Shown here in pieces: positions 5,521-58,579 of a DNA stretch of 64,000 bases. The position numbers and the translations under genes are program-made. Under the pieces are notes generated by a model. That model had not been told where the DNA came from and did no database searches. It saw nothing but the letters and a program-made list of their open reading frames with translations. How positions within the stretch are numbered: position 1 is the stretch's first letter; every line of letters starts with the position of its first letter. Source of the stretch: a virus (Duplodnaviria > Caudoviricetes); IMG/VR virus record IMGVR_UViG_3300001487_000106, positions 29,193-93,192 of that record. One strand, 5' to 3'.

Positions 5521-5630
5521 ATATACGATATATTGTGAGTAATGTGATAATAATATTTTATCACTTTACTCACAATTATCTAACCACAAACCGGTTTAAA
5601 AAATTTATATTTTGAAAGGAGTTTTCCGAC

Positions 5631-6578
5631 ATGTCTGAAAACAAAAACAAGTTTAAAGTACCTAGTGAGGTAAAAGAATTTGCCAAAGCTTCTTATAAGA
5701 AGTATAAGAAGCATAATGACTTCGATAGTAAAAAAGAGGCTATGAAGTCATTTAACCTCTACCTTATGGATATGCTTCCTGAGGTAATAGAACCGATGGT
5801 AAAATACGGTTACCTTATTAAGCGTGAGGAGCCTGAAATTTACAATGCTGTTCTTAATAAGTTCTGTAATGAAGACTTCATAAAGTCTGTGAAGAAAGAA
5901 CTTAAGCGAGGTAATAAGATAAAAAATATCAAGTTGTTCCCGATTATAATTGGCGAGATGATCGAGACAATCAACTCTCAGAATGCACAGATTCTTGCCG
6001 AGAATCCAAACGCTACAGTATACACTGGTAGTGACTTAATCGAACTTGGTCAGATGATTCTGAGCAAGAAAATTAAGAAGTTCACAAAAGCTGGAATTGA
6101 TGAAAATATCGCTTTTGATATTCTGTCGATAATACCGACAGACAGCTGTCTCGAAAAGTCTTACAACTTCAGGATAGCAAGCTTTGAGAAGGTTCTGTAC
6201 GAACATTCGAAGGCAAAGGCTATACCTTTTGCTGAAATCATGAGCCTTCTGGTTGACAAGGAGTGGTATGCTCCATTTATAAAATTCTTCCTTTGTGAGA
6301 GAAAGGAAGTATTTGGTCATCTGACTGATAATCAGAAGGCATTTTATCTCAGTGTATCAAATTGGTGTTTCGATACATTAGAGTCTCTCGATAGAGATTC
6401 TATTGAGAGAGTTCTGGATACTATTATTCAGGCTCGAAAGATAGATGAGTCTAAGGGTAAAGACTCGCCCAGAAGATATTCTCTGACAAGTCTGTCTGAA
6501 ACAGATTACCCGAGGATCTTCAAAATGGTTCAGAAAAAGGTATCTGAATCAGAGGTAAATAAAAAGTACCTCAGTTAA
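5631..6578 (+). CDS. Hypothetical helical protein
   Basis: 315 aa ORF with strong RBS gaaaggag; no recognisable motif. Confidence 0.8.
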   Translation: MSENKNKFKVPSEVKEFAKASYKKYKKHNDFDSKKEAMKSFNLYLMDMLPEVIEPMVKYGYLIKREEPEIYNAVLNKFCNEDFIKSVKKELKRGNKIKNIKLFPIIIGEMIETINSQNAQILAENPNATVYTGSDLIELGQMILSKKIKKFTKAGIDENIAFDILSIIPTDSCLEKSYNFRIASFEKVLYEHSKAKAIPFAEIMSLLVDKEWYAPFIKFFLCERKEVFGHLTDNQKAFYLSVSNWCFDTLESLDRDSIERVLDTIIQARKIDESKGKDSPRRYSLTSLSETDYPRIFKMVQKKVSESEVNKKYLS

Positions 6579-26229: not shown

Positions 26230-26279
26230 AAGCATGAATACTTTATTATAATCAATATTTTTTGAAAGGAGAAAAAAAT

Positions 26280-28011
26280 ATGGCTAAATCTCGTATTGCA
26301 AGAATAGGTGATAAGTTATATGACTTAGGAACACAGAATAGGTCATTTTTACAGGTTGCAAAAGATTTACAAACAGTTGGAATCAAAAATTGCTATTTTA
26401 TGCTTGAAATATATGATTATAGTTTGGTAAATATTGACCCGTTTTCTGTTGGACCCGATGGCCATACTAATTTAACACAAGATCAAATAACTAGAATTAT
26501 GACAGAATGTATGAGAAATCCTTGGTATTATCTTCGTGAAATATCTAGAATTCCTGATCCAGGTGGTACTGCTGTGCCATATAAGGCAAATAGGGGTAAT
26601 ATTGCACAGGCATGGTGTATTTTACATGGTTTAGACTCATGGTTAAATTTAACACGTCAACAAGGTAAAACACAGTCAGCAATTGCTATGGAAACATGGA
26701 TGTACTCATTTGGTACTTCGCAATCTCAATTTATATATATAAATAAATCGGGTGAAGATAGTAAAACAAATCTTAAGAGAACTGGTGACCAAATAAGATT
26801 TTTACCTGAATATTTAAGATTTGAATCATTTACTGATGATGATGGCAAGGTTACAAAAGCAACTAATAATGCTACAAAAATGGGACATCCTATAAATGGT
26901 AATACTATTATTACTAAAGCTAAAGCAACATCATATGATACTGCATTATCATTGGCTAGAGGTCTTACATCGCCAATACAACATTTTGATGAGGCTGAGT
27001 TTACACCTCATATAAAAACTATAGTAGCAAACTCGGTATCTACATATGAAACTGCAGCAGCTAGAGCTAAAGCGAATGGTGCTATGTATGCTCGTATATT
27101 TACTAGCACACCTGGAGATCTTGATTCACCTGCTGGTCAAGAGGCACAGGAAATTTTAGATAAGACTGCTAAATGGACCGAACGTCTTTATGATATGACT
27201 GAAGAAGAAATACAGGAATACATAGATTCACAAGGTAAAGATTGTAACAAGATTCTTTATATAGAATATCAGTATTATCAAATAGGATTAACTGAAGATT
27301 GGTTAAAAAATATATCTGCTAAAATTGGAGATCCCTTAACAGTAAGACGTGAAATACTACTTCAAAGATTACACGGTTCATCACTTTCTCCATTTAATCA
27401 AGAAGATATTCAATATCTTATTGAGATTGCTCATAAACCAATAGATGAAATGTGGTTACTTGAATATTATAGATTTGATATATACAAAAAACTTAATCCA
27501 CGTATAACTTATCTTATCGGCGTCGACTGTTCAACGGGAACTAACGGAGATAATAATGCTATTACAATATTGAATCCATATACGTTAGAAGTGGAAGCTG
27601 AATTTGAATGTTCATATATTGGTGAAACAAAATTTGAAGCATTACTTATAGAACTAATAGGTATTTTACCTAGAGCAGTATTATGTATCGAAAGAAATAG
27701 TGTTGGTGATTCCATTATAGACCATCTTCTTAATAGTAAAATACGTGCAAATCTTTATTATGATAGAGCTAAAGATTTAGTTGAAGATAATGCTATAGCA
27801 TCTGGTACTATTGAATCTATGCTTAAAAAACAAGCATCAATGAAATCATATTATGGAGTCTATACAGGTACTAAATCTCGTGAAGATATGATGGCTATTC
27901 TAGTAAGACATGTCCAAGAATATAAAGAAAAATTTATTACTCAAAACATAACAAGAGATATATCAAGATTGATAAGAACATCATCTGGTAAAATTGAGGC
28001 AGGACCCGGTT
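26280..28011 (+). CDS. terL: Terminase large subunit, exon 1
   Basis: Walker A TRQQGKT, Walker B HFDEAEF, FTST, nuclease IGVD and CIERN; ends ...EAGPG plus one T. Confidence 0.9.
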
Positions 28012-28380
28012 CAAAAAATCAAAAATTAAAAAGCATTCATCATGAGGACCGGGATAAACTCCTTTAATTGCGGGGAACTCTCGTTAGGTCTTAACTACTA
28101 AACTAATATTTATATTAGTGGCGAAGGGTAACTCCTTAGGTATAGTAAAAAGGTTAAGAATAGAGACAATCCGCAGCCAAGGCTCTTATTAAGAGCAAGG
28201 TTCAACGACTATCGAAAGCATAGCTTAAGAGAAATACTTAAGTAAAGAAGTGAGTAGAGTAGTGCCTATTTATAGGTTAGTTTTATGGTGATATTAGCCA
28301 TAAGTAATTCTATTAAAACGAAATGGGGAGCTCTTCATATTTGGTAATAGAATATGAAGATGATGATATAGTCTATATTG
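28012..28380 (+). mobile_element. Group I intron, ORF-less, 369 nt
   Basis: P1 CCCGGUU/GACCGGG(28047-53) with U-G at the splice site; P10 CATCATGAG with 3' exon TTCATGATG; P7 GACTA...TAGTC; terminal G; splicing restores GPG-F-HDD. Confidence 0.92.
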
Positions 28381-28778
28381 TTCATGATGACTCTGTAATG
28401 AGCTATCTAATGTGCCTTTATGTTTATTATCATGGTAATAATCTCCCTGTATTTGGAATTATTAAAGGTAAATTAAACGAAGATGAACAAAATAAAGGAT
28501 TGAAACATGCCTCTGAAATCGATCCATCATTAGTTGATCCTAGGTTGATAGAGTCTGTAAAAAAACAAGAGCAACAGATAGCTCAACAGGAACAATGGAA
28601 ACAGTTAATGAAAGAGGCTGCTATTAAAGCACAGAAAGATACGTATAAACTGGTAAAAGCTGGTGAAATTCAAAACACGGTTTATAATAACACACCTGGA
28701 GAAATAATCGAACAGATGGACGATGATACAAATGGTTCTATAGATTTGAGCTTTTTCAATAGTATAAACGGATTTTAA
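28381..28778 (+). CDS. terL: Terminase large subunit, exon 2
   Basis: Supplies the catalytic HDD motif (F-HDDSVMSYL), in frame after splicing. Confidence 0.88.
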
Positions 28779-28781
28779 CAA

Positions 28782-28829
28782 AAAAAAGATACAATATAAT
28801 CTTTACTCTCGATTATATTGTATCTTTTT
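28782..28829. terminator. Bidirectional intrinsic terminator
   Basis: aaaaagatacaatataatc / gattatattgtatcttttt. Confidence 0.85.
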
Positions 28830-29015
28830 ACATATCTATTTACGGTTTCATGTTGTGATTGAAATTAATCAATCACAATATCGCAATCATTAAAATCGGG
28901 ATACATTTTATTCACCTCCTTATTTTTTTAAGTATCCCGTAAATAGATAATAATACAAATAACGGTTTGTATCCTTTAAAAACCGTTATTTTTTATTTGT
29001 ATTATTTTTTATGCA
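28785..29015 (-). ncRNA. Candidate structured small RNA carrying a 13-aa sORF
   Basis: Promoter-like CCGCATA...TATATTAT at 29052-29021, several long stems, terminator at 28782-28829. Confidence 0.5.
28865..28906 (-). CDS. Small peptide MYPDFNDCDIVID
   Basis: Perfect SD AAGGAGGTG 6 nt before ATG. Confidence 0.45.
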   Translation of the reverse strand: MYPDFNDCDIVID

Positions 29016-29105
29016 AAAAAATAATATATATGTATTTATTCTGAATATGCGGTTTTATTATCATTATAACGTTACTATAATTTTTTATTGAAAGGAGACA
29101 TGATT

Positions 29106-31327: not shown

Positions 31328-34318
31328 ATGCCGCAATCTATACAGATAGTACCTAAGTACTCATATCCGTACGTTGAAACTGTAATCAATGATAATACAA
31401 AGGTTACTGAGACAAATACTGATACTAGGATTGATCCTTCAGTAACTTATGCATTTCCGTTCGTTTCATCTAAGGGTGTGGACAATGTATTTGTAAGAAA
31501 GACGTCGTACGATAGTTTTGTATCGACATATGGCACTTCTAATTATAAGAAATATGGTCAGCCTCTGATGATGCCTCTGGCACTTCTGAGAAAGCCTAAT
31601 ACTTATGTATGGGGTATGCGTGTAATGCCTGAGAATGCTACATATTCTAATGCAGTTATTTCTCTGTATTATAAGGCTGACAAAACTAATGATACCGTTA
31701 AGGCTAGCGAAAGACGCTTCCGTATGAAGTTCATAGTTAAGTTCCTTGAAGGTATCAGTGATATTGAAACATTCAATAAAAAGTATGTTGAACTTGATGG
31801 CGCAGAGTTAGTTAATGATAAGTATGTTGATGACGAGGGCTACACTCAGGCTCCTGTTATGGGTATCCGTGTTGCTGGTAGAGGCAAGTACGGCGATAAC
31901 TACTCTGTTCATATTGACACAAATAAGTCATATGAAAAAGAATACGGTATCAAAATGTATGATTTTGTCATCATGAATAATGAGGGTGGTCTTAACAAGA
32001 TTGCAACCTATACTGGTTCAATTGTTTCATCGTCTAAGTATGATGCATCAACTCTTGTTAATGATATCCTTGAAAATAGCAACATTGGCGATGTTCCGGT
32101 TTATATTTCCATGAACGAAGCTGGTGTTGAAGATGTATACGATGCATATGTATCATTCCTTACTGAACTCTATCCTTCACTTGAGGCAGAGTATGATGAG
32201 ACATTTGCTAAGTATGCTGAAATTTTTGCAAACGTATCTATTAGCAGAGAATCACTCACTAACATGGTTAATGGCAATGAGAGAGTTCCTACCGGTATTA
32301 TTGCAAAAGATGCAGACGGTAATGATGTGAAGCTCTCTGATGCTGTTTCAGAACTTCAGAAAATAATGTCGATGATAAAGGATTCTAATCCTGATAATAT
32401 TATTGACATTGACGAGTTTGACCCGTTCTTTGCAAAGAAAGTTGCAAGCACTGAATTACTTCCTTGTATCATGTATCCTTCAGAGGTTCCGAAGGGTGGT
32501 ATTCCTGCCGGTGCAAATCCTGCAGATTATACTACATCAAAGCTTATGCCTTCATTCGGCTCTGTAAAGGGTGTTGGAGTAAACTATGGTACAAATGGTT
32601 ACTTCGATAATCCCAGAATTCTTGATACTGATGGATTCATTGTAACTTCAAAGACTGTTGCAGTTGATGCTGAGGGTGAAACAGTATTCCCCAAGGAAGT
32701 TGAAGTTCCCGCAACAATCGTTAAATTCGTAGATTCAACTGATAATAGCTATTATATCAATAGTGGTACAGCTACTATTCCCGTTTATACACATTACAAT
32801 GCTGATGGCACAACTGTTCAAGTTGATGTTGTTACATTCGCAGCGGCTACATCCACTACCGAAGGTGCTCTTGAAGTTGTAGCTAATGATTATACTGGTA
32901 AAACAGTATATGCCGTAGCAACTTCTGGTGATGCTGGCGCTCTTGAAGTTGTAGCAGATGATGCTGATCCTTTTGATTCTGAAACACAGATTAAGATTAG
33001 CGATGTTACAGGCATCACTGTAAATGTTGGTGATTATGTAACCAAGACAGAGATTCCTTTTGACCCTGAAACACAGATTAAGATTGGTGAAGTTACTGGC
33101 ATCTCTGTTGTTGTTGGTGATTATGTAACCAAGACTGTGACAAAGGAAGACGAAGTTGTTAACACAGATGAAGTTACAGCTAAGATTGAAGCTGGTGAAC
33201 TTACTCGTGTTGAAGATGCTGATCCTGAAAAGACTGTTACCGTAACAAAGTATTATCGTGAAGATGGTGTTACAGAAGGTGTTGAACCTATAAATACTAA
33301 TGCTTCCAAGTATTACTATGAAGATGGTAAGGAATGCACTACTGATGTTACACAGTGGACAGTAGCACAGGAAATTGATGAATGCTATAAGAATGCATTT
33401 AACGGTACTTTTGATAGAAAGGTTCTTTCTTCAAGAAGAATTCCTGTTACTGCATGGTTTGATGCAAACTATAGTTATGAGGTTAAGCAGGTTCTTGCAG
33501 AACTTGTAGTTGTAAGAAATGATGCTCCTCTGTATCTTGACTGTGGTATTGAAATGGAGTCATTCTCTAAGTCTAATATCAATAGTCTCATTCGTGATTA
33601 TGCTATATTCAGTACTATAGGTTCTGATAAGACTGGTATTGAGAATCATTGCCTGATCTCGAAGAATACACAGCACTTCATGGTAAGAGAAACTCCTTCT
33701 CAGAAGAGAGTTAAGGTTTCCATCACTTATTTCCTTGCTCAGCAGTTTGCTGATCATGTTATTGACTATGGAACTCATATTCCTATGGTTAAAGCAAAGG
33801 CACAGCTCACTGGTCATATTAGAGATACTCTCGAGCCCTCTATTGAAGACTATGAGGCTGATCTCAAGGAAGAGCTGTATCAGAATAACTTTAACTATTT
33901 CGAGACTCTTGATGATAATGTATTCCAGAGAGCTACTCAGACAACAGCACAAACTGATCTGACTGATCTTTCTGAAGAGAATAATGTATTTACTCTTTAT
34001 GCAATCAAGAGAATAATAGAAACCGATATTCATAGTAGACTCTATGACTTTGCTGATGCAAGTGAAAGAGAGCACTTCTCTGCATTTGAAAAAGCTAAGT
34101 TCTCCGATTGGACTGGTTCCAAGGTTCTTTCAATTGATATAGAGTTTAGAGTTAATAAGTGGGAGTTTGATCGTTCTATTTTACACTGCTATGTTGCAGT
34201 TGTATTTAGAGGTCTTCAGAAGCGTGCTATTCTCGAAATTGATATCAATAAGAGAACATATGAAGATAGCACTAACACTGATGACAATGGTTCTACCACT
34301 GGAACTATTATGCTGTAA
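31328..34318 (+). CDS. Contractile tail sheath protein with a large internal insertion
   Basis: N-terminal YPYVETVIND / FVSTYG / VWGMRV, GRGKYGDN, C-terminal sheath domain (DANY..EVKQ, LSEENN, VAVVFRG); high-expression codons; followed by the tube gene. Confidence 0.82.
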   Translation: MPQSIQIVPKYSYPYVETVINDNTKVTETNTDTRIDPSVTYAFPFVSSKGVDNVFVRKTSYDSFVSTYGTSNYKKYGQPLMMPLALLRKPNTYVWGMRVMPENATYSNAVISLYYKADKTNDTVKASERRFRMKFIVKFLEGISDIETFNKKYVELDGAELVNDKYVDDEGYTQAPVMGIRVAGRGKYGDNYSVHIDTNKSYEKEYGIKMYDFVIMNNEGGLNKIATYTGSIVSSSKYDASTLVNDILENSNIGDVPVYISMNEAGVEDVYDAYVSFLTELYPSLEAEYDETFAKYAEIFANVSISRESLTNMVNGNERVPTGIIAKDADGNDVKLSDAVSELQKIMSMIKDSNPDNIIDIDEFDPFFAKKVASTELLPCIMYPSEVPKGGIPAGANPADYTTSKLMPSFGSVKGVGVNYGTNGYFDNPRILDTDGFIVTSKTVAVDAEGETVFPKEVEVPATIVKFVDSTDNSYYINSGTATIPVYTHYNADGTTVQVDVVTFAAATSTTEGALEVVANDYTGKTVYAVATSGDAGALEVVADDADPFDSETQIKISDVTGITVNVGDYVTKTEIPFDPETQIKIGEVTGISVVVGDYVTKTVTKEDEVVNTDEVTAKIEAGELTRVEDADPEKTVTVTKYYREDGVTEGVEPINTNASKYYYEDGKECTTDVTQWTVAQEIDECYKNAFNGTFDRKVLSSRRIPVTAWFDANYSYEVKQVLAELVVVRNDAPLYLDCGIEMESFSKSNINSLIRDYAIFSTIGSDKTGIENHCLISKNTQHFMVRETPSQKRVKVSITYFLAQQFADHVIDYGTHIPMVKAKAQLTGHIRDTLEPSIEDYEADLKEELYQNNFNYFETLDDNVFQRATQTTAQTDLTDLSEENNVFTLYAIKRIIETDIHSRLYDFADASEREHFSAFEKAKFSDWTGSKVLSIDIEFRVNKWEFDRSILHCYVAVVFRGLQKRAILEIDINKRTYEDSTNTDDNGSTTGTIML
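32835..33138 (+). repeat. Nested duplicated module within the sheath gene
   Basis: gctcttgaagttgtagc occurs twice and ctgaaacacagattaagatt...gttggtgattatgtaaccaagac occurs twice, in order A-A-B-B. Confidence 0.85.
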
Positions 34319-34338: not shown

Positions 34339-35256
34339 ATGGCACAATATGCACAGAAAGATACCGCTAAAAGTAATAGTATTACTCACAACAATTCTAT
34401 TCAGGCTGGCGGTAGCTCAATGAAAAACTTTCAGGATGCATCACTGACTGATTATGCACTGTTTTTAGGCGGTACTAATGTCACTCATGATGTGCTTGAA
34501 AAGTATGATCCTCTTAAGACTGGTTATGGTCGTTTATTTATGGTTAGAACACCTTTATTTGTCAGAGAGCTCATGCCTCCTCAGATGGGTATATTTAAGC
34601 ATATACTTGAATATGGTAATACAGCAGTTTCTGGTATAGGTGACGTTTCTGTTAACTTTGAACCTCTCAAAGGTGGTTATGTAGGTAAACAGTTTGAAAT
34701 ACCTATGACAGCTGAAGATAGTACCAATGAATTTACCGTTAAGGTTTACGAATTTTCAGGTTCACCTATTCGTGAAGTTCTTCATACATGGATTAATGGT
34801 ACAACTGACCTATTAACAGGTTTAGCAACTTACCATGGAGTTGACCCTTCAATTAAGAGAAAACAGTCTAATCAGACAGCAGAGTTTGTCTATGTTGCTA
34901 CTGATAACACTGGTGAAAAGGTTGAATATGCTTGCTTACTTGCTAACTGCTTCCCTAAGGGTTTAAACACTGACGTATTCAACTATGAGTCAGGTACACA
35001 TGGTCTTGTAGAAACTGATATCGCATTTACATGTACAAAATATGAATCGATTCAGATTAACGTCGTAGCTTGTAAGTTACTTGAAAAATATAAAATGCTT
35101 GCTAACTCACTTAACTTCTATAGTGGTTTCGAGGTTAATGTTAAAGATGGTAATGCTACACATCTTAATGTTAAGAATGGTAAGATTGAAACCGGCTTAG
35201 AAGAGGGCTCATCGAATGCAGTATTACCTGCAAGTACATGGGAATCCAAAACTTAA
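34339..35256 (+). CDS. Tail tube protein
   Basis: 305 aa directly after the sheath; YEFSGSPIREVLHTWI and ANCFP..L resemble tube-fold motifs. Confidence 0.75.
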   Translation: MAQYAQKDTAKSNSITHNNSIQAGGSSMKNFQDASLTDYALFLGGTNVTHDVLEKYDPLKTGYGRLFMVRTPLFVRELMPPQMGIFKHILEYGNTAVSGIGDVSVNFEPLKGGYVGKQFEIPMTAEDSTNEFTVKVYEFSGSPIREVLHTWINGTTDLLTGLATYHGVDPSIKRKQSNQTAEFVYVATDNTGEKVEYACLLANCFPKGLNTDVFNYESGTHGLVETDIAFTCTKYESIQINVVACKLLEKYKMLANSLNFYSGFEVNVKDGNATHLNVKNGKIETGLEEGSSNAVLPASTWESKT

Positions 35257-35264
35257 AAAAATAA

Positions 35265-35303
35265 TAATGATGGTGAAAGTAATACTTTCACCATCATTTT
35301 TTT
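35265..35303 (+). terminator. Intrinsic terminator of the sheath-tube operon
   Basis: atgatggtgaaagta / tactttcaccatcat plus T run. Confidence 0.85.
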
Positions 35304-35304
35304 A

Positions 35305-35560
35305 TAAAAAAAAGACTGCACGTATTAATATCGTTCTTTATGAATCAATACTAATACGTGCAGCCTAATTAGGGAATTTTGATTATAGTAAACATGTTAC
35401 TTTTCCTTTCCTTTCTTGGATAATTAACTAAGCGAACTAAGTTGGCACCGCAACCACGTCAAGCTCCTAACTCAATTTCTACATCACTGCAGTTGATGTT
35501 GAACTTAGCTTGTCCTTATGTGAAGACTATACGTGGCTTATAATCTTCATTATTACACTA
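35305..35560 (-). ncRNA. Candidate pseudoknotted structured RNA with an 8-aa sORF and its own terminator
   Basis: CCGTAAA...TATATCAT promoter-like site at 35594-35563; stems whose mismatches are G-U only on the minus strand; loop AGCCACGU pairs with ACGUGGUU; terminator at 35306-35365. Confidence 0.6.
35369..35395 (-). CDS. Small peptide MFTIIKIP
   Basis: Purine-rich SD gaaaggaaagga before ATG. Confidence 0.3.
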   Translation of the reverse strand: MFTIIKIP

Positions 35561-35596
35561 ATATGATATATTATTATAATTCGTTACTTTACGGAT

Positions 35597-38059
35597 TTAG
35601 TCTTCTCCTTCTTCACTATCACTATCTAAGTCAAGACCATCTATACCATCGTCTTCACCATTGTCACCATTGTTAGGATTAGGTCTAAGAGTTTCTTCTT
35701 TAACATCAATAGCAGCCTGCTCACATATTTTATTAATCCTATCCATATTAAGAAGAGGAAGTTGCTCTGCCGCATACAATTCTTTGAATCTTCTTATTTC
35801 TTTATTTATGTTAGGATTATCAGCTTCAGCCTGACCAGGGTCACCATATTTAATACCAACAACAAATTCAACCAACTGATTAAATGCATTAATAGCTTCA
35901 CCTTTAGCAGTAGATGCAACTGTTTTAGGAGGTTGTAATGCGAATTCAAAATTGTCTACCATTTGATCTGGTATATTTGTTGACCATCTCATTATCTTTT
36001 GATATAATTCAGTTATACTAGGATTAAAATCGAGTTGATAGTTAACTACTCTACCATTAAACTTAGTATTGTTTTGTTCGATGACTTTAGCGAAATCTGC
36101 TTCATTTAAATAGTTAATAATAGCCGCAGGAACACCTGTTCCCAGTATATACGAGTTCTTTAACATTTCAAGAAGTTCACTATTTAACTGTATGTCTTGA
36201 CCTGATAAAATCTCTGTTTCAATAGGCCTTTCACCAGATCTGCCAGTAGGTATGTATACTTCCGTTCCGTTACCCACTTTATTGATTAATGTGGTATAAT
36301 TAAATAAATCATACATGTTAATTTGGCGTGATTGTTTTATACGTGCAATCTCTTGTACTTTATTAGCTACGTTTTTATCAATACCAGATGTTTTTAAATA
36401 GTTTACCTTTTGATCATTACTATTTAATATAATAGACATAATTTTGAATAAAAGAAGCATTAAATAAAGTTTAGCATAGAATAATGATTTCTTTATCATT
36501 GATTGTCCGTTGCCATACTCGTCTTGGTCAATCTTGAAAGGAACTATGTACTCTACAGGAATGAACTGGAATTTAAGTCTTTTTTCATTTAAATTATAAT
36601 AGTTAATGGCTTCAACTATTGTTTCCTTAAATTTTATATTATCTTTAAGAAAATCCTTATCGAAACAATCTACTATTCTTTTTGCAATAGAATCAATTAT
36701 AGATTGCTGTTGATTTGCTTCATCAAATTTATTATAGTATAGGGTTGATGAAATCATTCCAGCAAGAGGTGTGATATCCTCTTCTTGTACATAATAATAC
36801 CCAATAGTCTGATTCATTATTTTTACAGGAATAATTTTAGTAGGTTCTATAAGTTTAAGATAGCAATCTTTAATATCTGAAAAGTCATCTTTAGCCTTTC
36901 CTCTTGATTTGGTATCATCAACAAAAGTGATACCATTTTTTGTATCATCATTGATTATCTTGTTAAATAAAGAATCAACTGATTTTTTATCTTTCCTTAC
37001 GGTTTTTGCTTCTGTGAATGTATCACCACTTTCATTAACATATTCATCCATATATGTTTTTATTGAAGCAAATCCTTCTTCCATTACAGGAAGTGGAACC
37101 GAATCATTACATATTATTACATTTTTAAGAATATTAGATACATCTTCTTTAAATTCTTTTTCTTTAGATTTTATTTCACTTTGTTTATTCTCAGGAAAAT
37201 TATTAACATATTCGGTGAAAATATCATCAATAAATTTATTATTTTTATTACCATTTTTATTACCATTTCGGGTAACAGTGCTATCTGAAACACTTTCATA
37301 TAAAGATGTTTCTTTATACATATTTCCAGTCTTTGTATTATTTTTATTTTTCATAAAATCATTAAAAATCTTTGAATATGGAATACAATATGCATAGTAC
37401 TCTCCATATTCAAGAGTTTTTGGTATAACAAAGTTTTTTATTTTTTCAAGAAGTGAAAATCGTTTCTCAAGAGACTCCACTATTGGTAAAGTATTCTCAG
37501 CATCTTCCTGATCAATTTTATCAAATTTAAGAGTTCTAGACATACGTCCTTCAACTACATCAGCTGAAACTATTGCATCACGAGTTATCAATATTGCTTC
37601 ACTTAATTCAATAAGTTGAGAAGCAACTTCGTGAAGGTCATTCTGCTCAAGAAGTCTATTTCTATATACATCATATAAAAATCCTTGTACTGCTTGCACT
37701 TCTTCTCCAGTCATAGATACAAATTGATTATCTAAAAGATTTGAAGCAGCAGTACTTTTCTTATCTGCCGAATATAATTTATTAATAAATGACGTTACAT
37801 CTTCGTCATCTTTTTGAGTCAAAACACCTATTTCTTCATGAAGAAGAGATTGAAATTTAGAATTCAATGTATCCACTTCAGAAGTTCTGTCTGTACCGTA
37901 TAAGTTTAAATTTGCTTGACCTAACATATTTTCAATTTGAGATAGATTTCTTCTAATACTCTTATCTTTTAATACAGAAGATGCTCTTTCTAATTCAGAA
38001 ATTTCAGTATTAGATTTTTTACTACCTGCTTTTTTATTATTAGTCGGCAAATTGATCAC
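35597..38059 (-). CDS. Portal protein
   Basis: 820 aa; LEYGEYYAY, GQSM, ILGTGVPAA, FALQPP motifs typical of T4-gp20/phiKZ-type portals; late promoter at 38079-38091. Confidence 0.75.
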   Translation of the reverse strand: MINLPTNNKKAGSKKSNTEISELERASSVLKDKSIRRNLSQIENMLGQANLNLYGTDRTSEVDTLNSKFQSLLHEEIGVLTQKDDEDVTSFINKLYSADKKSTAASNLLDNQFVSMTGEEVQAVQGFLYDVYRNRLLEQNDLHEVASQLIELSEAILITRDAIVSADVVEGRMSRTLKFDKIDQEDAENTLPIVESLEKRFSLLEKIKNFVIPKTLEYGEYYAYCIPYSKIFNDFMKNKNNTKTGNMYKETSLYESVSDSTVTRNGNKNGNKNNKFIDDIFTEYVNNFPENKQSEIKSKEKEFKEDVSNILKNVIICNDSVPLPVMEEGFASIKTYMDEYVNESGDTFTEAKTVRKDKKSVDSLFNKIINDDTKNGITFVDDTKSRGKAKDDFSDIKDCYLKLIEPTKIIPVKIMNQTIGYYYVQEEDITPLAGMISSTLYYNKFDEANQQQSIIDSIAKRIVDCFDKDFLKDNIKFKETIVEAINYYNLNEKRLKFQFIPVEYIVPFKIDQDEYGNGQSMIKKSLFYAKLYLMLLLFKIMSIILNSNDQKVNYLKTSGIDKNVANKVQEIARIKQSRQINMYDLFNYTTLINKVGNGTEVYIPTGRSGERPIETEILSGQDIQLNSELLEMLKNSYILGTGVPAAIINYLNEADFAKVIEQNNTKFNGRVVNYQLDFNPSITELYQKIMRWSTNIPDQMVDNFEFALQPPKTVASTAKGEAINAFNQLVEFVVGIKYGDPGQAEADNPNINKEIRRFKELYAAEQLPLLNMDRINKICEQAAIDVKEETLRPNPNNGDNGEDDGIDGLDLDSDSEEGED

Positions 38060-57861: not shown

Positions 57862-58371
57862 ATGAAATTAAAGTTAAGTGCTAGAAATGTAGCATTAGAA
57901 ACAATAGAACATGGGCTTCCTATTGAAGCTGTTAAAAATATTTTGATACCCAAAGGAATTGATATACTGGGTTCTAATTGCTTTAATAATTACAAAGATG
58001 AGATAGAATCTATCGATTTATCTAAGTCTGAAGTTACTGTTATTGAGGAAGGTACTTTTTCAAATATGAAAAACTTGAAAAGTATTAAACTTCCTCATGC
58101 ATATATAGAAATACCTGATGAAGCATTTTTAGGTTGTACAAACTTGAAAACTGTTAATTTTTCTCATAGTGTTAAATCAATAGGAACTCGTGCTTTCTAT
58201 AAATGTGAGAGTCTTGAGGCTATTAGTATACCGAATGGGTGTATTGAAATTAATAAAGAGGCGTTTGCTTATTGTACATCATTAAAATATATACATTTAC
58301 CTGTTGGTGAATGTTGGTTATCAGAGAATATATTTTTAGGATGCAATCCTATTGAAATAAATATAACCTAG
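57862..58371 (+). CDS. BspA-type leucine-rich repeat protein
   Basis: AFLGCTNLKTV, SVKSIGTRAFYKCESLEAISIP, AFAYCTSLKYI. Confidence 0.88.
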   Translation: MKLKLSARNVALETIEHGLPIEAVKNILIPKGIDILGSNCFNNYKDEIESIDLSKSEVTVIEEGTFSNMKNLKSIKLPHAYIEIPDEAFLGCTNLKTVNFSHSVKSIGTRAFYKCESLEAISIPNGCIEINKEAFAYCTSLKYIHLPVGECWLSENIFLGCNPIEINIT

Positions 58372-58387
58372 TAGGAGGGAATTTGAT

Positions 58388-58579
58388 ATGAATGAAAGAG
58401 ACTATACAGAGTATTTATCAATGTTAAATGAATCGTCAAGTATTAATGATTTCTTGAATAAACCTGATGATAACGCATTAATAAACATTGATAGAAGTAA
58501 AAACTCTATTAAATTTAAAAATAAAAAAAAGAGAAAAAAGATTGCTAAAAAATCTCGTAAAGCAAATAGAAAGAAGTGA
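58388..58579 (+). CDS. Small protein with basic C-terminus
   Basis: 63 aa, RBS aggagg. Confidence 0.7.
   Translation: MNERDYTEYLSMLNESSSINDFLNKPDDNALINIDRSKNSIKFKNKKKRKKIAKKSRKANRKK

Follow-up and report, generated by a model that had tools for sequence, protein, structure and literature searches.

The portal-tail tube intergenic region

We analysed a 64,000-nucleotide stretch of phage DNA (hereafter the window), which comprises bases 29193-93192 of the 93-kb virus record IMGVR_UViG_3300001487_000106 (completeness estimate 39%), and followed up a proposal made from its letters alone (the sequence-only reading) that a compact structured RNA is encoded between the genes for the portal and the tail tube. 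The two genes are convergent, and the element lies between them as a 290-nt insert on the minus strand (35594-35305) that reaches from the stop codon of the portal-like gene to an older two-way terminator (Table 1). Along the minus strand follow a promoter-like site, approximately 250 nt without a long open reading frame (ORF), a purine tract, a mini-ORF, a long hairpin with U8 and a second hairpin. All of the sequence features that had been claimed were found where they had been placed, namely the promoter-like site with both its boxes, the purine-rich Shine-Dalgarno (SD) tract, the ORF MFTIIKIP, which proved to be conserved, and the dedicated terminator with its stem and U8. The assignment of the neighbours was borne out as well. 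The tail tube protein matches Pfam Phage_TTP_14 (PF23806), and the 820-aa product of the portal-like ORF matches proteins annotated as portal vertex in jumbo phages, those of Staphylococcus and AR9/PBS1-like Bacillus among them, with 20-32% identity (25-32% across 43-51% of its length for the AR9/PBS1-like and Staphylococcus jumbo phages), and in addition a PHROG virion protein.

Table 1. Features of the RNA element and of the genes around it (window coordinates)
Feature	Position	Strand	Description
Promoter region	35563-35594	-	TATATCAT 35570-35563, 6-nt spacer, predicted +1 G35556; upstream CCGTAAA 35594-35588
P1 hairpin	35522-35548	-	GAAGAUUAUA 35548-35539 : UAUAGUCUUC 35531-35522, 10 bp; 7-nt loop AGCCACG 35538-35532
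P2 5' arm	35503-35510	-	AGCUAAGU; P2 closes the three-way junction, 8 bp
P3 hairpin	35481-35499	-	ACAUCA 35499-35494 : UGAUGU 35486-35481; loop ACUGCAG including palindrome CUGCAG
P4 hairpin	35435-35477	-	AAUUGAGUU-A-GG : CC-AACUUAGUU, 11 bp, one bulge; 20-nt loop with CGUGGUU 35458-35452
P2 3' arm	35426-35433	-	GCUUAGUU; single C (35434) between P2 3' arm and P4 in all copies
SD tract, purine-rich	35400-35417	-	AAGAAAGGAAAGGAAAAG, direct reading
Mini-ORF MFTIIKIP	35369-35395	-	ATG 35395-35393, TAA 35371-35369; 8 codons and stop
Intrinsic terminator of the element	35305-35366	-	20-bp-class stem 35366-35313, U8 35313-35306; from folds
Older two-way terminator, outside the insert	35266-35298	both	terminator scan; common to portal-like and tail tube genes
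Portal-like gene	35597-38059	-	820-aa ORF
Tail tube gene	34339-35256	+	Phage_TTP_14
Tail sheath gene	31328-34318	+
Terminase large subunit gene	26262-28067	+	PHROG, E 7e-45

The fold is conserved between diverged copies

Folding of the 290 nt as minus-strand RNA gave -74.8 kcal/mol (z -5.7), a value that none of 200 shuffles equalled, compared to -58.3 kcal/mol (z -3.0) for the plus strand. The G.U pairs also suit the minus strand only, as the sequence-only reading had argued. Our revised model of the fold is a hairpin, P1, followed by a three-way junction of the helices P2, P3 and P4, with a predicted pairing of seven nucleotides between the loops of P1 and P4. In the window this P1-P4 architecture is 0.1 kcal/mol less favourable than the minimum-energy fold and is the dominant one in the ensemble, with pair probabilities of 0.88-1.00 for P1, 0.63-0.79 for P2, 0.54-0.76 for P3 and 0.43-0.64 for P4. 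Two sister contigs, L004 and L007, carry copies of the element next to portal and tail tube genes that are 97-98% and 88% identical with those of the window, respectively, and the core of L004 folds alone into P1/P2/P3/P4 (z -5.6, equalled by 0 of 300 shuffles).

Comparison of the copies showed how far each part is retained. P1 is the same in L004/L007 apart from a U.G to U-A change, and all eight pairs of P2 are kept there, two of which differ on one side only (G.U/A-U and U.G/U-A). The loop ACUGCAG of P3 is invariant, and its stem in L004/L007 has one more G-C pair, owing to one inserted base per side. P4 is formed there by other sequence at the equivalent place, a 14-bp helix of AAUCUUAAAUUAUG and CAUAAUUUGAGAUU, with five pairs changed on both sides. 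Both lineages have U(C/U)A, AGA and a single C as junction strands. The pseudoknot-type pairing of the hairpin 1 loop with a downstream complement (ACGUGGUU, 35459-35452), a central claim of the sequence-only reading, is kept in both lineages; the part of the complement retained in the relatives is CGUGGYU (35458-35452), and the pairing reads AGCCACG : CGUGGUU with one G.U in the window and AGCCACG : CGUGGCU with seven Watson-Crick pairs in L004. In shuffled sequences a 7-nt complement to the P1 loop arises anywhere 3' of P1 in 2.3% of cases for the window, G.U being allowed, and in 0.19% for L004 with Watson-Crick pairs only. The terminator stem differs from that of L004 by a compensatory change from U-A to C-G and by a change from G.U to A-U.

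The inner helix ACAUCA/UGAUGU that had been noticed earlier is the conserved P3. The helix CAAGCU/AGCUUG that had been thought to close the second domain was not supported: its letters are complementary, but it has an ensemble probability of 0.00 and is not present in L004/L007. A pairing that had been offered as an alternative turned out to be close to the conserved helix P2, but the conserved 3' partner is a second copy of CUUAGUU (35433-35426). The first one belongs, as 3' arm, to P4, a helix not seen in the sequence-only reading. Two copies of the P2 3' partner are present in the window and in L004, not in L007. In addition, we observed a tandem duplication of a block of approximately 33 nt that contains the P2 3' partner and the SD in L004 (~5625-5695) and L007 (~5625-5696). 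Its junction differs between the two contigs, and the block was therefore duplicated twice or reworked afterwards.

Conservation in relatives had been set beforehand as a test of the element, and the P1-P4 fold with its two-sided changes in P4 was found there. A MAFFT alignment proved wrong in the 3' half of the core, and we therefore used a covariance model that was built from L004 and L007 only, the window being excluded. This model matches the window at 35552-35420(-) with 68.3 bits (E 3.7e-13) and all four helices in register; no other match below E 0.04 was obtained across 14 sources. Of 73 cells in an alignment fitted to this model, 98.6% are paired, and the five pairs that change on both sides all belong to P4. 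When the partners were slid by 1-3 columns as a control, 29-37% were paired.

Natural variants were available from two DNA runs of other studies (X2 and X3), the contigs of which carry copies a few per cent different. Among the best-supported differences, given here as bases of the minus strand (31 more occur across the 1.2-kb stretch), 35439 U>C (X2/X3) turns a G.U of P4 into G-C, 35527 G>A (X2, X3) turns a U.G of P1 into U-A and equals the change in L004/L007, and 35351 G>A (X3) turns a G.U of the terminator into A-U. The terminal pair of P1 is lost by 35548 G>A (X2/X3 variants). The remaining changes in the P4 loop lie outside the 7-mer (35449, 35451, 35465 and a 2-nt deletion at 35459, which also takes part of the proposed AGCUUG arm), and the others fall into the linker (35418, +1 at 35421), the spacer between SD and AUG (-2 at 35397), codon 2 and the leader/promoter region. 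Neither of the two loop-loop 7-mers is changed among these differences. Compared with L004 the element is 42-78% identical per 60-column block, and most flanking blocks are 90-100% identical. Hence the element is a divergence hot spot in which the stems are kept, and their retention is not a mere lack of divergence time.

No known family was recognized. A scan of the whole window with Rfam 15 at gathering score gave 0 matches. Around the element, hits at E up to 10 reached at best 25 bits, with thresholds of 64-85, and all of them lay on terminator hairpins; for the L004 copy nothing near threshold was found at E up to 1. A hammerhead-like CUGAUGU-AGAAA in L004 was considered and rejected: it is the 3' arm of P3 plus junction, no stem II fits and no Rfam ribozyme matches.

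An early-promoter motif precedes the element

The early consensus of phage AR9 is given in the cited account as AAATATATATTAT-(6N)-G, with G as the start of transcription (PMC5312081). The motif of the window reads AATAATATATCAT-ATTAGT-G and deviates from TATATTAT at one position, its core being TATATCAT, and L004/L007 carry at the same place TGATATATTAT-ATATGT-G, a perfect TATATTAT-N6-G. From the motif a transcript start at G35556 is predicted, 8 nt ahead of P1. In the record TATATTAT-N6-G occurs at 13 sites, seven of which are intergenic, with intergenic DNA amounting to 12.4%. Six of these seven precede an ORF of the same strand by 26-104 nt, and the seventh, at 29014, leads a second mini-ORF cassette (see below). 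The AR9-type early motif is used ahead of genes in this phage genome, and its relatives encode multisubunit RNA polymerases: two genes for beta-like subunits (PF00562) are present in the nearest complete relative (G001, 250,395 bp, 100% complete) and one in another (G000). PF00623 (beta') was not detected. AR9/phiKZ-type phages have two beta-like RNA polymerase genes, as does G001. A scan for sigma-70 promoters gave counts not above those of shuffles.

The upstream box CCGTAAA recurs at a similar distance from a TATATA(A/C)TAT box at 22021-21990 and 21414-21383 (-), ahead of two other minus-strand units. Together with the site at 35594 and with CCGCATA at 29052, these may represent a promoter sub-class or a common upstream element.

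As to expression, one contig from an RNA library, prepared from a sample that may be the source of the window DNA, covers 35361-35527 without a difference, and other RNA-library contigs cover portions of the tail tube and portal genes. Library X15 has no contig at 35208-35360 and 35528-35910 and X16 covers 34900-35196 only; with contigs at depth 3-14, neither is informative on transcript ends or absence.

The 3' module consists of a mini-cistron and a terminator

An SD-like GGAG is kept at similar spacing in L004/L007, though the stretch is only 42-62% identical. The mean unpaired probability of the SD tract is 0.39-0.60; 6-8 nt separate the purine tract from the AUG, and in all copies the terminator stem starts 3 nt past the stop codon. 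Given the general footprint of ribosomes, this stem would therefore have to be opened by a ribosome that terminates there. The mini-ORF occurs in three haplotypes, MFTIIKIP with stop codon TAA in the window, the same peptide with F2I and a spacer shorter by 2 nt in X2/X3, and MINRIKIP with UGA in L004/L007; all three retain SD and AUG together with an in-frame stop as codon 9. The codons of the window are AUG UUU ACU AUA AUC AAA AUU CCC. The last 13 nt, AUCAAAAUUCCCU, are invariant between the window and L004/L007, in contrast to 42% identity immediately ahead of them. Among the proline codons in the long ORFs of the phage CCC is used least (73 of 809, 9%), and none of the 74 long ORFs ends in proline.

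In a scan of phage start regions for sites complementary to this 13-mer, the best one (-13.7 kcal/mol) was the start region of the ORF at 58388 (~58353-58405, +), in which …GGAGGGAAUUUGAUAUG is nearly complementary; this energy is not significant compared to shuffles. Small plus-strand ORFs at 35216-35368 and 35533-35676 were taken as spurious, as they overlap insertions and deletions between the window and L004.

The second mini-ORF cassette lies at 28782-29052 (-) and has counterparts on contigs L038 (1501-1809) and L039 (1501-1809). It consists of a perfect TATATTAT-N6-G, a long hairpin, a AAGGAGGTG SD, a 13-codon ORF and a terminator, and it is 93-94% identical in G001 and G006. Counted by hand from the alignment, the ORF shows five synonymous and two non-synonymous changes (MYPDFNDCDIVID vs MYPDFNDTDIVIE), and the rest of the cassette is almost invariant. 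From this pattern the 13-codon mini-protein looks truly coding, and owing to this synonymous excess mini-genes can be real in the genome of this phage.

The element is an optional insert in a small clade

In L005, a contig with a portal 70% identical, the homologue of the two-way hairpin comes immediately after the portal stop codon, with the convergent tail tube gene next, and in L006 and L008 the portal stop likewise leads directly to a terminator. The window, L004 and L007 have approximately 290-340 nt extra, with a terminator of their own, ahead of the older hairpin. Altogether, the element is absent 3' of the portal gene in seven loci (L005, L006, L008, L017, L019, L020 and L022; portals 69-74% identical among the relatives compared) and absent from record G002, which is 85% complete. 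The covariance model found it in one of five related records, once, in the 100%-complete G001. As the element is single-copy and missing from relatives with 69-74% identical portals, it is probably an accessory early RNA gene of the moron type rather than a packaging RNA.

The locus searches were based on the portal and yielded five loci in IMG/VR, six in JGI metagenomes and none in prokaryote genomes; a second IMG/VR search with an 83%-identical protein (P0003) gave no additional contig. The homologue set leaves aside the contigs of 13 portal cluster members (at least 90% identity) and of 78-83% relatives. Within this set, the sister contigs L004 and L007 were the only ones with homologues of the element. 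A blastn search of the intergenic region against GenBank phages gave no match. When three conserved stretches were used as exact patterns against IMG/VR, the two sister contigs alone were recovered; 13 more matches to the P3 pattern were chance occurrences in coding DNA. A 20-mer of P1 had no exact match in 185,579 prokaryote genomes, so that at this stringency nothing points to an origin from a host or from a CRISPR-like repeat. The DNA runs that hold window sequence are gut and bovine gut metagenomes, and the carriers of the element form a small clade of uncultured giant phages from the cattle rumen.

Relation to known kinds of RNA and phage elements

Phage morons are independent promoter-gene-terminator units between two genes. 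The element resembles them in having its own promoter-like motif and terminator, in lying between genes that are adjacent in L005 and in being optional. In contrast to morons, it carries as its cargo a folded RNA with an 8-codon ORF instead of a protein gene, and its phage is a virulent-type jumbo phage with RNA polymerases of its own, whereas the phages of morons are temperate. The dual-function small RNAs (sRNAs) SR1/SR1P of B. subtilis and RNAIII/hld of S. aureus are structured RNAs with a small ORF and SD, as is the element, the ORF of which differs in comprising just eight codons and in lacking a signature of synonymous change. For the giant phage 201phi2-1, 11 sRNAs are described, three of them intergenic, and sRNA005 as well as an sRNA upstream of phiKZ gp182 are among those dealt with in that report (PMC11512511). 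As far as these are described there, they are likewise short jumbo-phage units with a start site, a nearby terminator and a conserved predicted structure. However, they were found by transcript mapping and the element was predicted from sequence; furthermore, a loop-loop pairing and a mini-ORF set the element apart, its distribution is limited to one small clade, and no relation to them in sequence or structure was found from the published description.

The element is best regarded as a member of a new RNA family, the novelty of which lies in the particular fold and in the combination; jumbo-phage sRNAs, morons and mini-ORF RNAs are each already known as kinds. Few small RNAs of virulent or jumbo phages have been mapped so far and, according to the accounts cited, none of these has a known function (PMC8244752, PMC11512511).

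Proposed function and alternatives

That a discrete RNA unit is encoded on the minus strand, as had been suggested, is supported, and so are a conserved loop-loop pairing and a conserved mini-ORF. We consider it probable that the element is an optional, self-contained early RNA gene of the moron type in an AR9-like rumen jumbo phage and yields a stable RNA of approximately 250 nt, the 3' module of which may act in trans. Within this reading, a real and conserved early RNA gene is the component in which we have good confidence, and engagement of ribosomes by the 3' module is a tentative notion and rather unlikely. The RNA would extend on the minus strand from about G35556 to the U-tract at 35306 and would be transcribed early by the virion RNA polymerase of the phage. 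Its 5' half, P1 and the three-way junction, would be locked by the 7-bp contact of the P1 loop with the P4 loop, and the largely unpaired 3' half would expose the SD and the 8-codon ORF that ends with the rare CCC and a stop. Both ends of the RNA would be shielded, by the folded 5' domain and the 3' hairpin. Action in trans on host or phage could then proceed via the 3' module, by ribosome loading on the mini-cistron and/or by pairing of the 13-mer with ribosome-binding sites.

Several observations weigh against this proposal. The core of the window alone is unexceptional in folding energy (z -1.5, 21 of 300 shuffles equal), and support for it is comparative; the comparison comprises two distinct full sequences and two near-identical variants, covariation is found mainly in one helix (P4), and the alignment used for the pair counts was itself fitted to the structure. 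The promoter motif of the window carries the one mismatch (TATATCAT vs TATATTAT), and according to the available account the AR9 virion polymerase is sensitive to single deviations, an AR9 site with one deviation being silent (PMC5312081). All three codon differences between the lineages are non-synonymous and none is synonymous; the peptide therefore bears no coding signature, and what appears to be conserved in the mini-ORF is codon identity or the RNA sequence itself. In the target scan with the 13-mer 36 of 200 shuffled seeds matched the best energy and 38 of 200 the mean. No terminator separates the element from the portal stop codon (35597), so that late portal transcripts probably carry the element as a 3' untranslated region (UTR) too. 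The RNA-library contigs, finally, carry neither strand nor transcript ends and have a depth of 3-14; the one across the element is a weak hint of expression and may be DNA carry-over.

Among the alternatives, a translation trap after the manner of CreT would assign the function to the 3' module: abundant early transcripts would tie up ribosomes or the rare CCC-decoding tRNA(Pro), the 5' fold serving as stabilizer or gate, and a ribosome would be faced simultaneously with the decoding of a rare CCC, with termination behind a proline and with the opening of the terminator stem. As described, CreT comprises an SD or AUG, a mini-ORF and a stable hairpin plus two consecutive rare (AGA-AGA, AUA-AUA) or proline codons (PMC8501985; bioRxiv 10.64898/2026.06.02.729485). 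The element shares with these accounts the SD, the AUG, a mini-ORF of few codons and the stable hairpin just 3' of it, its mini-ORF ends Pro-stop as does the 'proline-codon toxin' of P. aeruginosa, the last four codons are nucleotide-invariant, stop codon and 3-nt hairpin spacing are kept in L004/L007, and the rarity of CCC and of terminal proline in the long ORFs of the phage fits as well. However, it has a single rare CCC instead of the consecutive pair that defines CreT, it is carried by a phage, in a region of structural genes, and possesses a large folded 5' domain of which the CreT RNAs, as far as those sources describe them, are devoid, and no CreA or CRISPR-Cas partner is known for it, no search for repeat-like creA sequences having been made. 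Moreover, the spacing of the hairpin is irrelevant in the P. aeruginosa toxin according to the cited report (bioRxiv 10.64898/2026.06.02.729485), and a global block would harm the phage too, the own genes of which use CCC 73 times. We consider such a trap doubtful and, as an explanation of the whole element, improbable. A further step, in which inter-molecular pairing of P1 and P4 loops and kissing P3 palindromes would oligomerize the early transcripts and the assembled mini-cistrons would hold ribosomes or tRNA(Pro), is very unlikely; if true, it would mean that host translation is bent during takeover by a CreT-like principle turned to viral attack and combined with assembly as in the packaging RNA (pRNA) of phage phi29. 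In Gram-positive sRNAs, UCCC motifs are known as anti-SD seeds. The mini-ORF might accordingly be incidental and its CU-rich 13-mer AUCAAAAUUCCCU an anti-SD seed for host or phage mRNAs, with which the identity of these 13 nt in diverging surroundings, the lack of synonymous changes in the ORF, the mostly unpaired state predicted for the segment and the phage site at the ORF 58388 agree. On the other hand, the target scan, which covered phage sites only, was not significant, and the joint retention of SD, AUG and in-frame stop would be left unexplained, so this possibility is improbable as well.

The lack of a terminator downstream of the portal stop and the deviating position of the window motif would also fit a cis-acting 3' UTR, i.e. 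a folded end of the portal mRNA that slows 3' exonucleases behind an inactive promoter-like motif. We regard this as quite improbable, since the terminator hairpin alone suffices in relatives, in L004/L007 the early motif is perfect and has its G at +1, SD and mini-ORF would be without a role, and a second terminator, belonging to the element itself, is maintained before the older one. The sequence-only reading had further thought of a riboswitch-like leader or a ribozyme, the core of which would sense a ligand or cleave itself and thereby control the mini-ORF. A compact junction with a tertiary loop-loop contact occurs in many aptamers, but there was no Rfam match at the limits given above, no alternative pairing of the core with SD or terminator was conserved in the folds of the three full-length copies, no gene to regulate follows beyond the eight codons, the junction strands are short and P4 is freely variable; the probability of this idea is very small. 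Smallest of all is that of a packaging RNA, which had been put forward speculatively and in which loops would pair between molecules and the P3 palindrome with itself to form a ring or chain at the portal. Like the phi29 pRNA the element combines a three-way junction with two mutually complementary loops, its CUGCAG loop is conserved, it adjoins the portal gene, and the 9-11-nt linker appears short for a fully coaxial intramolecular pairing by rough geometry, not computed with a tool. It differs from the pRNA in that one of the loops lies outside the junction and the pairing comprises 7 bp instead of 4. Its phage packages with a terminase, the large-subunit gene of which is present, and the element is dispensable: it is lacking, as set out above, from the seven portal loci and from the 85%-complete relative, and the Rfam scans listed no packaging-RNA family. 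We therefore reject packaging as an essential function.

If the early RNA gene that we favour exists, its compact fold with a tertiary contact is amenable to compensatory mutation, and the design of its mini-cistron recalls RNA toxins. Optional and fast-evolving elements often take part in the conflict between phage and host, and the element is of this kind. Should the mini-cistron engage ribosomes, it would be a case of the CreT principle employed by a virus. In practical terms less is gained, namely a seed for a new RNA family and improved annotation, in rumen jumbo phages, of intergenic DNA that counts as 'empty'.

Neighbouring genes

No tRNA or tmRNA gene was found within the window. Upstream on the plus strand the matches to the large terminase subunit end at 28067 and are followed by a gap of 255 nt and a separate 151-aa ORF (28323-28778, +). 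At the 3' end of the tail tube gene (35159-35215) one 60-column block is 65% identical to L004 and contains six gap columns, with 82-98% identity in the rest of the gene. This pattern suggests a recombination boundary or a variable C-terminus adjoining the insert.

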